A stretch of DNA of 64,000 bases from an uncultured delta proteobacterium (GTDB taxonomy: Bacteria; Myxococcota_A; Polyangia; Haliangiales; Haliangiaceae), in contig CAWKDB010000002.1 of assembly GCA_963848295.1 (NCBI GenBank), positions 992,001-1,056,000 of the forward strand, read 5' to 3'. Shown piece by piece: positions 11,483 through 24,038 of this stretch. A model generated the notes under the pieces. It was not told where the DNA came from. It did not search any database and saw only the letters and a program-made list of their open reading frames with translations. The first letter of the stretch is position 1. The number at the start of each line of letters is the position of its first letter. The position numbers and the translations under genes were made by a program.

Positions 11483-12835
11483 GTGACCGCAGGTCCCCGG
11501 GTGCTCGTAGTCGACGACGAGCGCAATATCCGCACGACGTTGACGATGTGCCTCGAAGGCATCGGCGCGAAAGTCATCGCGGTGGGCACGCCCGAGGCCG
11601 CCCTCGCCGCCGCCGAGCGCGAGCCATTCGAGCTCGCCTTCGTGGATCTCCGGCTCGGTGCCCAAGACGGCATGGCGCTGATCCCGAAGCTGCTCGCGTC
11701 TCGCCCGGAGCTCGCCATCGTCGTGATCACGGCCTACGCGACGATCGACACCGCGGTCGAGACGATCAAGCGCGGCGCGACCGAGTTCCTCGCGAAGCCG
11801 TTCACCCCGGCGCAGATTCGCCACGTCGTCGCGCAGGTCCTCGCGCGCCGGACCGCGGAGCTCAAGATCGCGGGACTCGAAGCGCAGATCGCCGAGGAGT
11901 TGCCCGGGATCGACGTCGCGACCGAGTCGCCGAAGATGCGCGCGACACTCGAGCTGGCGACCCGAGCGGCGGCCGCGGACGCGCCGATGTTGCTGCGCGG
12001 CGAGAGCGGCACCGGCAAGAGCGTGCTGGCGCGCTTGGTCCATGCTCGCAGCAAGCGCGCCGCGCAACCGTTCGTCACCGTGAGTTGTCCGACGCTGTCC
12101 GAGGACCTGCTCGCGAGCGAGCTGTTCGGCCACGCAGTCGGTGCGTTCACCGGGGCCGTTCGCGATCAACCGGGCCGGGTCGAGGCCGCCGACGGCGGCA
12201 CGCTGTTCCTCGACGAGATCGGCGACATCTCGCTTGCCTTGCAGGCGAAGCTGCTGCGGTTTCTCCAGGACAAGCACTTCGAGCGGGTCGGCGAGACCAA
12301 GACGCGGCACGTCGACGTTCGCGTCATCGCGGCGACCAATCGCGATCTCGACGCCGATGTCGCGGCCGGCCGATTCCGCGAAGACCTGCTGTTCCGCCTC
12401 AACGTCATCGAGATCGCGGTGCCCGCGCTGCGCGAGCGCTCCGAAGATATCGTCGAGATGGCGCGCCGATTTCTCGCGTTCTTCGCGAAGGCCGCGGCGC
12501 GGCCCGTGCCCGAGCTTTCGCCCGCGGCCGCCGCTGCGCTGCGCGCGTACGCGTGGCCCGGCAACGTGCGCGAGCTGCGGAACGTTCTCGAGCGCGCGGT
12601 GATCCTCTATCCTTCGGCCACGCTCGGTGTCGAGGCGCTGCCCGATCGGATCGAGGCCTCGGCGAGCACCCCTCCGAGGGTCGGTGCCGACTTCACGCTA
12701 GATCAGCTGGAGCGCGAGCACATCGAGCGCGTCGTCGCGCGCGCGTCGACGCTGGAGGATGCTGCTGCGATCCTCGGCATCGATGTCTCGACGCTCTATC
12801 GCAAGCGCAAGAAGTACGGTCACGACTCGGAGTGA
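11483..12835 (+). CDS. Sigma54-dependent response regulator (AlgB/NtrC-like)
   Basis: REC (VDDE, FVDLRL), [25 protein letters not shown] ([12 protein letters not shown]). Confidence 0.95.
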
Positions 12836-14667
12836 GCCGCGTCCGCGAGCGGAACGGTGAACCAGAACGTCGCACCCGCTCCCGGCTCGCCGGTGACGCC
12901 GATCGCACCGCCGTGCGCGCGCACGATCTCGCTCGCGATGTAGAGCCCGAGGCCCGCGCCGCCGGCGGGGGCGCCCGGCACGCGCACGTACTTGTCGAAG
13001 ATCGCGTCTCGGTACTCCGCCGGCACCCCGGGGCCATGGTCGACGACCTCGAAGCGCAGCGCGTGGTCCGCTACGCGGGCGCGGACCGCGACCTCGCCAC
13101 CAGCTGGCCCGTAGCGGACGGCGTTGCCGACGAGGTTCGCGAGCACGAGCAGCAGGCGATCGCGGTCGACTGCGATCGCCGGCAGGCCTGGCATCAGCTC
13201 GGAGCGCAGCTCGACCTGGCGCTGCGCTGCGGTCGAGCGCTGTGCATCGAGCGCCTCGCGCACGACCACCTCCGGGTCCTCGGGCGCGATGCGCAGCTCG
13301 ATCCGGTCAGCCGAGATCCGCGACAGATCGAGCAACTCGTCGACGATCGCCTGTAGTCGATCGCACTCCTCGCGTGCCGCGAACACCAGGTCGGCCTGTT
13401 TCTCGGTGAGCTCGCCGACGGCCTTCTCGGCGAGCAGGTGCACCGCCATCCGGAGCGATGTCAGCGGCGTGCGCAACTCGTGGGCGACGGTCGCGACCAG
13501 ATCGCTGCGCAGCTCCTCGAACCGGCGCAGGCGAGTCACGTCCTGGAGCACGATCGTCGCACCGATCACGTCGCCCTCCTCGGCGTAGAGCGGCGCCGCG
13601 CGTGGCAGCAACAACACGCGGGTCCCGTCGGCCCCGACGACCTCGACCGCCTCGTCCAGTCCCTTCGGGACGTACGCGCCGTGCCCGGCGGCGACGTATT
13701 GGCGCAGCCGCTCGACCGCGCTGCGCACCGCCGGTTCCAGCGACGCGAGCGCGCCGCGCCCTGCCTCGGCGCGCACCTTGAGGATGGTCTCCGCGATGTG
13801 GTTCGCGTGGCGCAGCTCGCCATCGAGCGCGACCACGAGCACCGGATCGGGGAGGCTGTCGATCGCGGCCTGCGCGGCGAGCTGGGCCTCGAGCAGCTCG
13901 CCGAGCGAGCTCTCGCGATACTTGTGGATGCGTTCGGCCATCGTGTTGAGCTCGTGGGCGAGCTCACCGATCTCGTCGCCGCGCTCGACCCGCGCGCGAA
14001 CCGCGACATCGCCCTCGCCGAGCCGGCGCGCGGTCTGGCCAAGCACGCTGAGCGGCCGGAGGACGCGCGTCGTGATCACCGACGACAGCAACACGCCGAG
14101 CGCGAGGCCGGCGATCGACACGGCGACGAGCAGCATGTTCGACTCGTCGGCGAGGTCGCGCGCGTGGTCGCTCTTGCGGATCATCGCGTCCTGATTCATC
14201 CCGAGGATTACGTCGGCCGCGTTCTTGACCGCGAGAAAATCCGGAAGCAGTTTCGTGAAGTAGCGGTCGTCAAGCCCGACCGCCTCGGGGCTCGCCCGGA
14301 CCGCTCCGACATCGCTGCGATAGGTCGTCCAGGCGAGGTGCAGCGCGGCGGTCGCACCGCGCTCGCCGGCCTCGGTGATGTTCGCTTCCTGGGCCGCGAG
14401 CTCGGCTTCGAACTTGGGCACGTTCGCATCGACCTGGTCGAGGCCACGGCCTGCTCGCCCGATGATCGCGAACACGACACCACTGTCGATCCGCTCCGCC
14501 GCCTCCTTCATGCGCTCCGCGGCAAGCACCGAGCGATAGTTGTCCTCGAGGATGTGCCGCGATCCACGACCGAGCGCCTGGATCACTACGCTGCCGATCA
14601 CGATCGTGATGCCGAGCGCGAGCACGAGCGGCAACTGCGCGAGCACGAGCTTCGTGCGGAGCCTCAT
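12820..14667 (-). CDS. Membrane sensor histidine kinase (helical periplasmic sensor, HAMP, PAS-like, HisKA, HATPase; KinB-like)
   Basis: Two TMs, HAMP (GDEIGELAHELNTM), VAHELRTPL, NLVGNA, DHGPG, GAGLGL. Confidence 0.92.
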   Translation of the reverse strand: MRLRTKLVLAQLPLVLALGITIVIGSVVIQALGRGSRHILEDNYRSVLAAERMKEAAERIDSGVVFAIIGRAGRGLDQVDANVPKFEAELAAQEANITEAGERGATAALHLAWTTYRSDVGAVRASPEAVGLDDRYFTKLLPDFLAVKNAADVILGMNQDAMIRKSDHARDLADESNMLLVAVSIAGLALGVLLSSVITTRVLRPLSVLGQTARRLGEGDVAVRARVERGDEIGELAHELNTMAERIHKYRESSLGELLEAQLAAQAAIDSLPDPVLVVALDGELRHANHIAETILKVRAEAGRGALASLEPAVRSAVERLRQYVAAGHGAYVPKGLDEAVEVVGADGTRVLLLPRAAPLYAEEGDVIGATIVLQDVTRLRRFEELRSDLVATVAHELRTPLTSLRMAVHLLAEKAVGELTEKQADLVFAAREECDRLQAIVDELLDLSRISADRIELRIAPEDPEVVVREALDAQRSTAAQRQVELRSELMPGLPAIAVDRDRLLLVLANLVGNAVRYGPAGGEVAVRARVADHALRFEVVDHGPGVPAEYRDAIFDKYVRVPGAPAGGAGLGLYIASEIVRAHGGAIGVTGEPGAGATFWFTVPLADAAHSES

Positions 14668-15842
14668 CCGCGCTCCTCTTCGCCGGGGGACCCGGAATCA
14701 AGCGCGACGACGTGCACGTCTAGATCATCGGCCTCGCGCAGCAAGCGCAGCGGCATCGACCGGCCGGCGAGTTGGCGCCACCACGGCTGATGCGACCGGC
14801 CGATCACGAGGTGACCGACGCCGTGCGAGCGCGCGAAGTCGATCAGCGCGTGAACCGGATCGCGAGCCCGTAGCCTGACGACCTCGGCGCCGAGCTCGCG
14901 CGCGAGCTCGATGTTCGCGAGCAGATGGCGCTGCGCCTCGGCATCGATCCGGTCCGGCGCCTCACGCGGCGTCTCGACATACACCACGAACCAATCGCCG
15001 GACAGCCGGCCAGCGAGCCGCGAGCCCTTGCGGAGCAGCAGCTCGGCGTGCGGAGGGTACGACGACATGCACACCATGACCCGACCGCGCGCATCGCGGG
15101 CCGCGCGCGCGCCGTTGGCCTCCACCGCGCCCGTGCGCGCCTTGGTCTCGCTCTGCCTCTCGAGGCTCTCCGCGACCTCGCGCAGCGCGAGCTCGCGCAG
15201 CGTGCTCAGATTACCGTCCTTGAAGAAGTGGCTCTCGGCCCAGGCCACCTTGTCGGCCGCGTAGATCTTGCCGCCACGCAGGCGTTCGATCAGATCCTCG
15301 ACCGAGAGATCGAGGTTGACGACCTGTACCGCCTCCTTGAGGAAGCGATCCGGCACGGTCTCGCGGATCGCAATGCCGGTCGTCTTCTCGACCACGTCCT
15401 TGAGCGACTCGAGGTGCTGGATGTTGAGCGCGCCGATCACGTTGATCCCGGCGGCGAGGATCTCGAGCACGTCTTGATAGCGCTTCTTGTGCTTGCTCCC
15501 CGGCGCGTTGCTGTGCGGAATCTCGTCGACGACGCACACCTCCGGCTTGCGCGCGAGGATCGCTTCGAGGTCCATCTCCTCGATCGACACGCCGCGATAC
15601 TCGATCGTGCGGCGCGGGATCAGCTCGAGGCCTTCGATCAACGCGGCGGTGTCGGCGCGGCCGTGGGTCTCGATGAAGCCGAGGACGACGTCGCTACCGC
15701 GCGCCCGTAGCGCGTGCGCCTCCTCGAGCATGCGATAGGTCTTGCCGACACCGGCCGCAAAACCGATGTAGAGCTTGAGCCCACCGCGCCGCGTGCGCTG
15801 CACCAGCTCGAGGAAGTCTTCAGGGCGCCGGCTCGCGGTCAC
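14664..15842 (-). CDS. kdpD: Stand-alone KdpD N-terminal sensor domain + USP domain (no TM or kinase part)
   Basis: KLYIGFAAGVGKTYRML, ETHGR, EEMDL, KRYQDVLEILAAGINV, NIQHLESL, LRELALRE; C-terminal USP. Confidence 0.93.
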   Translation of the reverse strand: MTASRRPEDFLELVQRTRRGGLKLYIGFAAGVGKTYRMLEEAHALRARGSDVVLGFIETHGRADTAALIEGLELIPRRTIEYRGVSIEEMDLEAILARKPEVCVVDEIPHSNAPGSKHKKRYQDVLEILAAGINVIGALNIQHLESLKDVVEKTTGIAIRETVPDRFLKEAVQVVNLDLSVEDLIERLRGGKIYAADKVAWAESHFFKDGNLSTLRELALREVAESLERQSETKARTGAVEANGARAARDARGRVMVCMSSYPPHAELLLRKGSRLAGRLSGDWFVVYVETPREAPDRIDAEAQRHLLANIELARELGAEVVRLRARDPVHALIDFARSHGVGHLVIGRSHQPWWRQLAGRSMPLRLLREADDLDVHVVALDSGSPGEEERG

Positions 15843-15861
15843 GTGGCCATCCTAGCGGGCT

Positions 15862-23913: not shown

Positions 23914-23926
23914 GGCGAGCGTCCTG

Positions 23927-23944
23927 ATGCAGCGCCTGTGCCGA
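23927..23944 (-). promoter_or_regulatory. Sigma54 -24/-12 promoter for the porin-kdpFABC operon
   Basis: Minus strand TCGGCAC-AGGCG-CTGCAT (GG-N10-GC), ending 13 nt before the ATG at 23913. Confidence 0.7.
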
Positions 23945-23990
23945 GCGTGAGCCTCGTCATGTCACGGCGTTGGCCTACACGGGACGACTC

Positions 23991-24038
23991 GCAATGCATC
24001 TTGCACGGTCACTCACGCTGGGTCGGGCAACCTGCATG
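23991..24038. promoter_or_regulatory. Putative enhancer (EBP-binding) sites
   Basis: GCAA-TGCATC-TTGC palindrome (23991-24004) and GGGCAACCTGCAT (24025-24037) upstream of the sigma54 site. Confidence 0.4.

Follow-up and report, generated by a model that had tools for sequence, protein, structure and literature searches.

Probable sigma-54 and NtrC-type control of a kdpFABC operon in an uncultured myxobacterium

Which regulator drives the potassium pump operon kdpFABC when an NtrC-type activator and KdpE are encoded in the same gene cluster? The question is raised by a 64,000-nucleotide stretch (the window) of contig CAWKDB010000002.1, which belongs to the genome of an uncultured delta proteobacterium (assembly GCA_963848295.1; 7.8 Mb in 11 contigs, 85% complete, about 68% GC). 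A first-pass annotation had placed kdpFABC under sigma-54 and an NtrC-type activator instead of KdpE. Comparative data and a precedent in Desulfovibrio support such control well, and we consider it very probable, from the sequences compared, that kdp depends on sigma-54 and the neighbouring activator. The wiring itself is not new, however, and KdpE is present in the cluster.

The gene order proposed for the minus strand was borne out. The run consists of a porin, a 27-aa peptide, kdpF, kdpA, kdpB, kdpC, a KimA-like permease, a KdpD plus Usp protein and a HAMP-PAS-HisKA-HATPase kinase, whose gene overlaps that of the convergent regulator by 16 bp (12820-12835); the GAFTGA motif of the regulator is at residue 220. 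In front of the run, the proposed CGGCAC-N5-CTGCA site is present on the minus strand with exact GG-N10-GC spacing (GG at 23942-23941, GC at 23930-23929), and the end of the -24/-12 box lies 14 nt from the porin ATG (23913). The genome encodes rpoN. Taken within the window alone such patterns are not significant: two or more GGCAC-N6-TGCW matches arose in 19 of 100 shuffles, and the palindrome TGCA-N3-TGCA, described below, in 28 of 100. The significance of the promoter site comes from its matrix score and its conservation across loci, not from pattern counts in the window.

We gathered 134 loci for comparison: 20 from relatives, the best 80 of 571 contig matches, and 34 from an even draw of 250 phylum genomes (36 of 251 genomes in the draw were above the KdpD cut-off). 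The arrangement of the window was found in 6 of the 34 loci from the draw, and most of the others had full-length KdpD. Loci lacking KdpD-N, the 5' part of kdpA or 450 nt of upstream sequence were excluded from the promoter counts, together with three duplicates and two unclassified loci. The compared sets were 60 window-type loci, the window included, and 21 loci with full-length KdpD (KdpE-type), classed by gene content alone. Upstream of kdp, the strict -24/-12 pattern was found in 27 of the 60 and in none of the 21 (0.6 in shuffles), and the loose pattern in 44 and 3, respectively. The palindrome TGCR-N3-YGCA occurred in 51 of the 60 window-type loci against 0 of 21 (5.6 in shuffles), and the direct repeat TTKAY-N6-TTKAY, a box derived from the KdpE-type loci within this phylum, in 4 of 60 against 10 of 21. 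These counts are the conservation check that the first-pass annotation had proposed. Sigma-54 site and palindromes are strictly associated with the gene set of the window.

The second check proposed there was matrix scoring. A -24/-12 matrix trained on 51 loci from outside the Kofleriaceae, the probable family of the window, gave the window site 13.8 bits. Scores of this height come up 156 times among 15.6 million genome positions, with about 0.002 expected for a gap of 180 nt. Medians were 10.3 bits in nine held-out Kofleriaceae loci versus 3.0 in the KdpE-type loci, and at least 10 bits were reached by 5 of the 9 held-out loci, 44 of the 51 training loci and 2 of the 21 KdpE-type loci. A simple scan of the kdp promoter gap detected no sigma-70 promoter or terminator; because no terminator was seen, transcription may also read through from porin 2 into kdp.

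Where would the activator bind? Two upstream elements had been named. The first, GGCAACCTGCA, is confirmed at 24026-24036, within the distal of two candidate activator sites. The second, GCAA-N6-TTGC, is present at 23991-24004, where it overlaps the proximal palindrome, but its axis is wrong and it occurs in 1 of 60 loci; we rejected it as the activator site, the true pattern being TGCA-N3-TGCA. When the spacer was varied over 60 loci, 3 nt was found in 51, while 2, 4 and 5 nt were found in 4, 10 and 8. The palindromes have the forms CGTGCA-N3-TGCACG and GTTGCA-N3-TGCAAC. They lie 45-110 nt upstream, with clusters at 54-57, 63-68, 75-77, 87-88 and 95-99 nt, approximately in helical-turn steps, and are frequently paired, 31-33 bp apart. 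Promoter and palindrome match jointly at 23 places in the genome, and only the window site has a second palindrome 29-34 bp away. In five genomes the module lacks adjacent pump genes, kdpA being on another contig in three and without a match in two. Where kdp lies on a separate contig (G287, G289), it keeps a promoter of 15-16 bits and a weaker palindrome of 6.7-8.2 bits. At two loci (L100:5031-5202 and L008:8300-8450) divergent sigma-54 promoters surround one palindrome pair, with kdp on one side and another gene or a porin opposite.

The regulator and the kinase have conserved phosphotransfer residues. D11, D12, D55 and K105 of the 11483 regulator are invariant in 35 aligned members. In the 12820 kinase, H396 of HisKA is invariant. 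In 78 of 80 loci KdpD-N is followed by the kinase gene, and in the remaining two the contig ends there. The regulator is linked in 62 of the 80; in 50 of these it is convergent, and the other 12 show three further arrangements. Among the 18 loci without a linked regulator, five have more than 8 kb of downstream room.

The core of this finding already has a published precedent. According to Rajeev et al. 2011 (PMC3333781), the kdpFABC operon of D. vulgaris Hildenborough is under the control of DVU3334, which is encoded with it and binds upstream of it; separate ORFs encode the K+-sensor/Usp part and the kinase part of the sensor. Upstream, a palindrome is placed at -149 and a sigma-54 promoter is predicted at -44, and the fragment upstream of kdpF was enriched 12.8-fold. 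Kazakov et al. 2015 (PMC4641369) list DVU3334, too, as a GAFTGA protein controlling potassium uptake. Common to DVU3339.1-DVU3334 and the window are kdpFABC, the stand-alone KdpD-domain plus Usp protein (DVU3336) with a separate kinase (DVU3335), a linked GAFTGA regulator (DVU3334) with phospho-acceptor residues in the window, a predicted -24/-12 promoter accompanied by rpoN in the window, and a palindrome whose spacer is 3 nt, which in D. vulgaris precedes the promoter by about 100 nt. The DVU3334 palindrome is one symmetric transition apart from GTTGCA-N3-TGCAAC. In the window, unlike D. vulgaris, the regulator gene is convergent and stands outside the operon, which takes in a porin, a peptide and a KimA-like gene; two palindromes are present, the predicted leader measures 2-4 nt versus about 17, and a KdpD-C/KdpE pair coexists. 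Beyond the papers cited here, no description of sigma-54 kdp wiring in myxobacteria was found in the literature searched. What our work adds is the breadth in Myxococcota, a defined operator, a predicted reassignment of KdpE and a putative leaderless class of transcripts.

If the kdp promoter depends on sigma-54, then we can ask: Is another activator of the genome its main or additional driver? The genome has 67 activator ORFs (77 domain matches), and in D. vulgaris kdp is targeted by three regulators, with DVU3305 using the same palindrome motif (PMC3333781). At C4:84136 (L138:4137) a stronger palindrome and a -24/-12 site lie just downstream of an unrelated activator, 39% identical, whose recognition helix is similar; this might reflect cross-talk or a system like that of DVU3305. 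Yet the HTH profile of the 11483 regulator gives 92 bits on itself and at most 44 on any other activator of the genome, and in both Myxococcota and Binatia its family is found together with the kinase and KdpD-N, the arrangements numbering four. We judge another driver improbable.

With the neighbouring regulator as activator, we infer binding, phosphotransfer, start site and signal at the kdp operon of the window from its sequence. The adjacent HAMP/PAS kinase would phosphorylate the NtrC-type 11483 regulator, perhaps in response to low K+ or osmotic stress. The regulator would then bind the two upstream TGCA-N3-TGCA palindromes and open the kdp promoter, and the whole run from the porin and peptide through kdpFABC, kimA and kdpD(N) to the kinase would be transcribed from the sigma-54 site at 23944-23928. 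KdpD-C/KdpE would drive KimA-like permease 2 and itself, separately from kdp. The KdpD/Usp protein would phosphorylate KdpB and shut off the pump under c-di-AMP control, and perhaps also tune the HAMP/PAS kinase.

What remains for KdpE in this cluster? That kdp is controlled without it holds for the kdp promoter, where the reported lack of a TTTA direct repeat was confirmed (no TTKAY-N6-TTKAY in 23914-24092). It does not hold for the cluster, since KdpE and KdpD-C lie about 7 kb away and their likely boxes face other genes. This part of the cluster, with porin 2, Kup, the second KimA-like gene, KdpD-C and KdpE (24093-32100), extends beyond the earlier reading. TTKAY-N6-TTKAY occurs in the window only at 27645 and 29717 (0.05 expected), and the strict pattern 19 times genome-wide. 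Such repeats recur before the KimA-like gene and/or kdpD-C in relatives that carry the KdpD-C/KdpE pair, and a -10-like hexamer frequently follows them after 10 nt. At the KdpE-type loci they lie on the kdp sense strand in 10 of 21 (14 with a looser pattern). The 31405 regulator is 58-65% identical to regulators of full-length KdpD loci of the same genus. We regard it as likely, from these patterns, that the KdpD-C/KdpE pair runs a separate circuit of KimA-like permease 2 and itself; such a reassignment of KdpE to KimA was not found in the literature searched. The plus-strand unit at 27645-32100, with the KimA-like permease, the 69-aa ORF, kdpD-C, kdpE and the two repeats, is conserved in several Kofleriaceae. 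At L016 the KimA-like permease gene is followed by one for full-length KdpD, and the stretch fetched there contains no pump genes; at L007:15391 (G011) a KdpE-type repeat lies between a KimA-like gene and a divergent gene that by eye resembles a cation/proton antiporter.

The window shares with E. coli-type KdpDE the pump genes and the presence of a KdpE-like regulator and a KdpD-type kinase in the cluster, and full-length KdpD/KdpE loci with upstream direct repeats occur in its genus. Unlike that system, it has its direct repeats before the KimA-like permease and kdpD-C and none at the kdp promoter, and no full-length KdpD was found: profile searches gave one kdpA, one KdpD-N and one KdpD-C in this 85% complete genome, the two KdpD matches being 14 kb apart. 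KdpD-N/Usp (14664) and KdpD-C (30020) could thus be read as one split KdpD that drives kdpFABC via KdpE (31405), with the activator incidental. Both halves and KdpE are indeed in the cluster, species in which the two KdpD activities sit on separate chains are reported (PMC11018627), and four sigma-54-type loci (L005, L006, L007, L021) have a KdpE-type repeat in the divergent gap shared with the kdp promoter. In these four the repeat is oriented towards the divergent permease, two of them (L007, L021) having a sense-strand copy as well. In the window, however, the kdp promoter gap has none, the repeats facing the KimA-like gene and kdpD-C. The sigma-54 signature persists although kdpE is within the fetched stretch in only 7 of the 60 window-type loci. 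It persists also in five cultured Myxococcaceae/Archangiaceae genomes (Myxococcus, Corallococcus, Cystobacter and Archangium), which have one KdpD match each and no KdpE-level match, their best KdpE-model scores being 178-193 bits versus 285 for the window regulator, among 150 scored of the 169-222 candidates per genome. A split KdpD acting on kdp is therefore very improbable in our view.

Several points weigh against control by sigma-54 and the neighbouring activator, or against its separation from KdpE. The patterns were picked after viewing 12 loci (8 window-type and 4 full-length), and related loci are not independent, so that the Fisher p-values overstate the significance. Four of the 9 held-out Kofleriaceae sites and 7 of the 51 training loci miss 10 bits, and at a third unlinked kdp operon (L136, G290) there is no joint match of promoter and palindrome. 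The pump genes are frameshifted. The assignment of the direct repeat to KdpE rests on its co-occurrence and on a likeness to the E. coli KdpE box. The palindrome belongs to more than one regulator: DVU3305 of D. vulgaris shares the motif, and two of the 67 related activators of this genome have similar recognition helices near similar palindromes. The D. vulgaris DVU3334 site itself scores only 4.2 bits on our palindrome matrix. In the cultured genomes, as given above, 150 of the 169-222 candidates were scored. The Caulobacter KdpE motif is different (10.1101/2023.07.05.547876). L007 and L021 also carry a sense-strand copy of the KdpE-type repeat in the region shared with kdp, and for this reason dual sigma-54/KdpE input is possible in some relatives.

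The stand-alone KdpD/Usp protein had been placed at the head of the signal path, acting on the kinase. In the published system (Silberberg et al. 2024, PMC11018627) the KdpD domain is a serine kinase for S162 of KdpB, and c-di-AMP stimulates a short form of the protein made of KdpD and Usp. Like the short KdpD of Deinococcus geothermalis described there (NCBIfam NF038185), the window protein has the two-domain architecture, Walker A (G27/G33/K34/T35), Walker B (D106/E107) and the adenine-binding Arg (R187), all invariant in 46 aligned members; the TGES serine of KdpB is present in 58 of 60 loci, and the genome has a diadenylate cyclase gene. It differs in having Tyr for W39 of E. coli, in its NF038185 score of 379 (cut-off 550) and in the translational coupling of its gene to a histidine kinase. 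We find it probable, from these residues, that the protein is a serine kinase acting on KdpB to turn off the pump, with c-di-AMP as its probable control. Because these residues, the TGES serine and the cyclase are all there, its presence is explained without any link to the histidine kinase. For such a link speak the near-invariant gene coupling and the pair being kept away from or without pump genes. A complex prediction of KdpD-N with the HAMP-PAS-DHp dimer scored 0.43, against 0.01 for the best of three controls, with runs agreeing in at least 50% of contacts and partner pLDDT of at least 68. This reaches our mark for weak support. Among solved complexes 116 of 157 came up to that mark, as did 2 of 215 mismatched pairs, but with scores no higher than 0.60 only 18 of the 157 did, along with both mismatches, and the KdpD-N prediction is unlike the calibration set. 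That KdpD/Usp additionally modulates the kinase is conceivable, but we lean slightly against it.

The kinase had been called KinB-like. In Pseudomonas aeruginosa, KinB has a helical-bundle sensor, HAMP, PAS and kinase domains and is paired with the NtrC-type regulator AlgB. The window kinase shares this architecture and has an NtrC-type partner gene. The likeness to KinB is one of shared architecture: KinB_sensor (PF16767) had no Pfam match in 32 kinase members and no PDB-sequence match, while 4HB_MCP_1 matched 23 of the 32. Comparison of folds does match the KinB sensor (TM 0.80 on target, rmsd 2.7), which is not listed among the representatives, and KinB_sensor is carried by one Atlas cluster (0.95), but bundles of chemoreceptors and other kinases match as well or better. 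The periplasmic four-helix bundle is predicted at pLDDT 92; because the kinase has this bundle of its own, it could sense the signal directly.

How is the pump mRNA started? By the usual count, transcription of porin-kdp is predicted to begin at about 23915-23917, 2-4 nt before the ATG, and the AGGA at 23925-23922 would then be untranscribed. This geometry recurs. Of 237 genome sites of at least 13 bits, 35 have an ATG at a distance of 12 nt from the end of the box and 15 at 13 nt, with 0-7 at any other offset. At a lower threshold there are 104 such ATGs, of which 74 follow C and 9 have a Shine-Dalgarno-like word in the spacer; coding-like frames begin at 52 of these 104 versus 183 of 647 at other offsets. 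An exact sigma-54 box with a 12-nt spacer and ATG occurs 65 times in the genome of the window. Counts for 24 congeners range from 16 to 77 per genome (the same range without G010), while a 9-nt spacer occurs 0-8 times. The geometry is also frequent in some other families (42-45, three genomes) and rare (2-7) in most other orders of the class. For kdp promoters of at least 10 bits the ATG distance is 12-18 nt in 24 of 49, the rest being longer or not assigned. The host likely has a large leaderless sigma-54 regulon, to judge from this spacing; such a geometry was not found in the literature searched. The four supplements of PMC8844925 (start-site data of M. xanthus) that we consulted contain no kdp terms, although other supplements may.

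Upstream of the activator gene, a -10-like hexamer ends 6 nt before the GTG (window 11471-11483, plus strand), with similar spacing in several orthologues. This suggests that the activator mRNA is a leaderless sigma-70 transcript. Control of this gene by KdpE through a half-repeat plus -10 (11454-11476) was considered and rejected, being not conserved in 28 orthologues; several of these have a -10-like hexamer near the start instead.

About a dozen uncompensated indels, mostly +1, are confined to porin 1, kdpA and kdpB (19.1-23.3 kb), and the genes on either side are intact. Such a pattern would fit a decaying pseudogene cluster with a relic promoter. But nearly all of the frameshifts are single-base insertions, the proteins are 80-93% identical to those of relatives, which have continuous frames and the same promoter, and other activator genes of the 11-contig assembly also appear in pieces. 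Because of the insertion bias and the high protein identity we read the frameshifts as likely consensus errors, and decay of the pump operon is scarcely credible.

More tentatively, and with the odds rather against it, the parts may be joined into one picture in which KdpD has been divided: its N half would dock on an unrelated four-helix-bundle/HAMP/PAS kinase, coupling pump shut-off to sigma-54 transcription of the pump, its C half with KdpE would be reassigned to a KimA importer, and the pump mRNA would be one of dozens of leaderless sigma-54 transcripts that form a class throughout the genus. With the probable control by sigma-54 and the neighbouring activator, a wiring known in detail from a single sulfate reducer is extended to many myxobacteria, and an operator is proposed that can be tested. 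This control also offers a possible answer to how kdp is transcribed in species with a short KdpD and without KdpE. It bears, too, on Myxococcus xanthus, whose kdpAB, induced by prey and NaCl and the genes most induced by live prey, are attributed to KdpDE control (PMC5857379); its five cultured relatives mentioned above, a set that DK1622 is outside of, carry the sigma-54 arrangement.

Table 1. Features of the kdp cluster and its candidate regulatory sites in the window.
Feature	Coordinates	Strand	Remarks
Sigma-54 enhancer-binding response regulator (REC-AAA-HTH_8)	11483..12835	+	450 aa; GAFTGA at 220
Membrane histidine kinase	12820..14667	-	615 aa; TM, four-helix-bundle periplasmic domain, TM, HAMP, PAS, HisKA, HATPase
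Stand-alone KdpD N-terminal domain + Usp	14664..15842	-	392 aa; stop overlaps kinase start
KimA-like APC permease 1	15862..17733	-	phmmer to 6S3K, E 1e-111
kdpC	17792..18448	-	frame intact
kdpB	18451..20511	-	several mostly +1 frameshifts; TGES serine kept; start approximate
kdpA	20512..22236	-	frameshifted; 3' end approximate
kdpF-like 29-aa ORF	22236..22325	-	overlaps kdpA start
27-aa hydrophobic peptide	22328..22411	-	relatives with either wiring also have it before kdpF
Porin 1	22416..23913	-	first gene of operon; frameshifted; BBP2-like via similarity to porin 2 and orthologues
Sigma-54 -24/-12 element	23928..23944	-	13.8 bits; predicted transcription start about 23915-23917, 2-4 nt before ATG
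Proximal candidate activator site	23993..24007	.	14.9 bits; TGCA-N3-TGCA core 23995-24005
Distal candidate activator site	24024..24038	.	6.8 bits; 31 bp from proximal; contains GGCAACCTGCA
Porin 2 (PF07642 BBP2)	24093..25496	-	intact; same strand as kdp, upstream of kdp promoter
Kup K+ transporter	25632..27596	+	
KdpE-type direct repeat TTTAC-N6-TTTAC	27645..27660	+	33 nt before KimA-like permease 2
KimA-like APC permease 2	27693..29720	+	phmmer to 6S3K, E 6e-58
Second KdpE-type direct repeat TTGAT-N6-TTGAT	29717..29732	+	before 69-aa hydrophobic ORF and kdpD-C
69-aa hydrophobic ORF	29788..29997	+	between second KdpE-type repeat and kdpD-C
C-terminal KdpD kinase (DUF4118 membrane domain + HisKA + HATPase)	30020..31408	+	without KdpD/Usp part
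KdpE-like OmpR regulator	31405..32100	+	best NCBIfam model KdpE, 285 bits (cut-off 325)

The 29-aa ORF is putatively kdpF, from its position and sequence pattern. KimA of B. subtilis was the sole PDB match, by sequence similarity, for each of the two permeases. No c-di-AMP riboswitch or other Rfam RNA was detected in 9000-34000 at gathering score. A second sigma-54 activator, with an FHA domain, lies at 6738-8090 on the plus strand, 3.4 kb from the kdp activator, and has no sign of membership in the kdp system. In G040, a 91% complete genome where no kdpA was found, the region ahead of kdpD-N-kinase (L009:3080-3210) has two strong palindromes, of 21.5 and 17.9 bits, together with a weak -24/-12 site, and a KimA-like gene is divergent.

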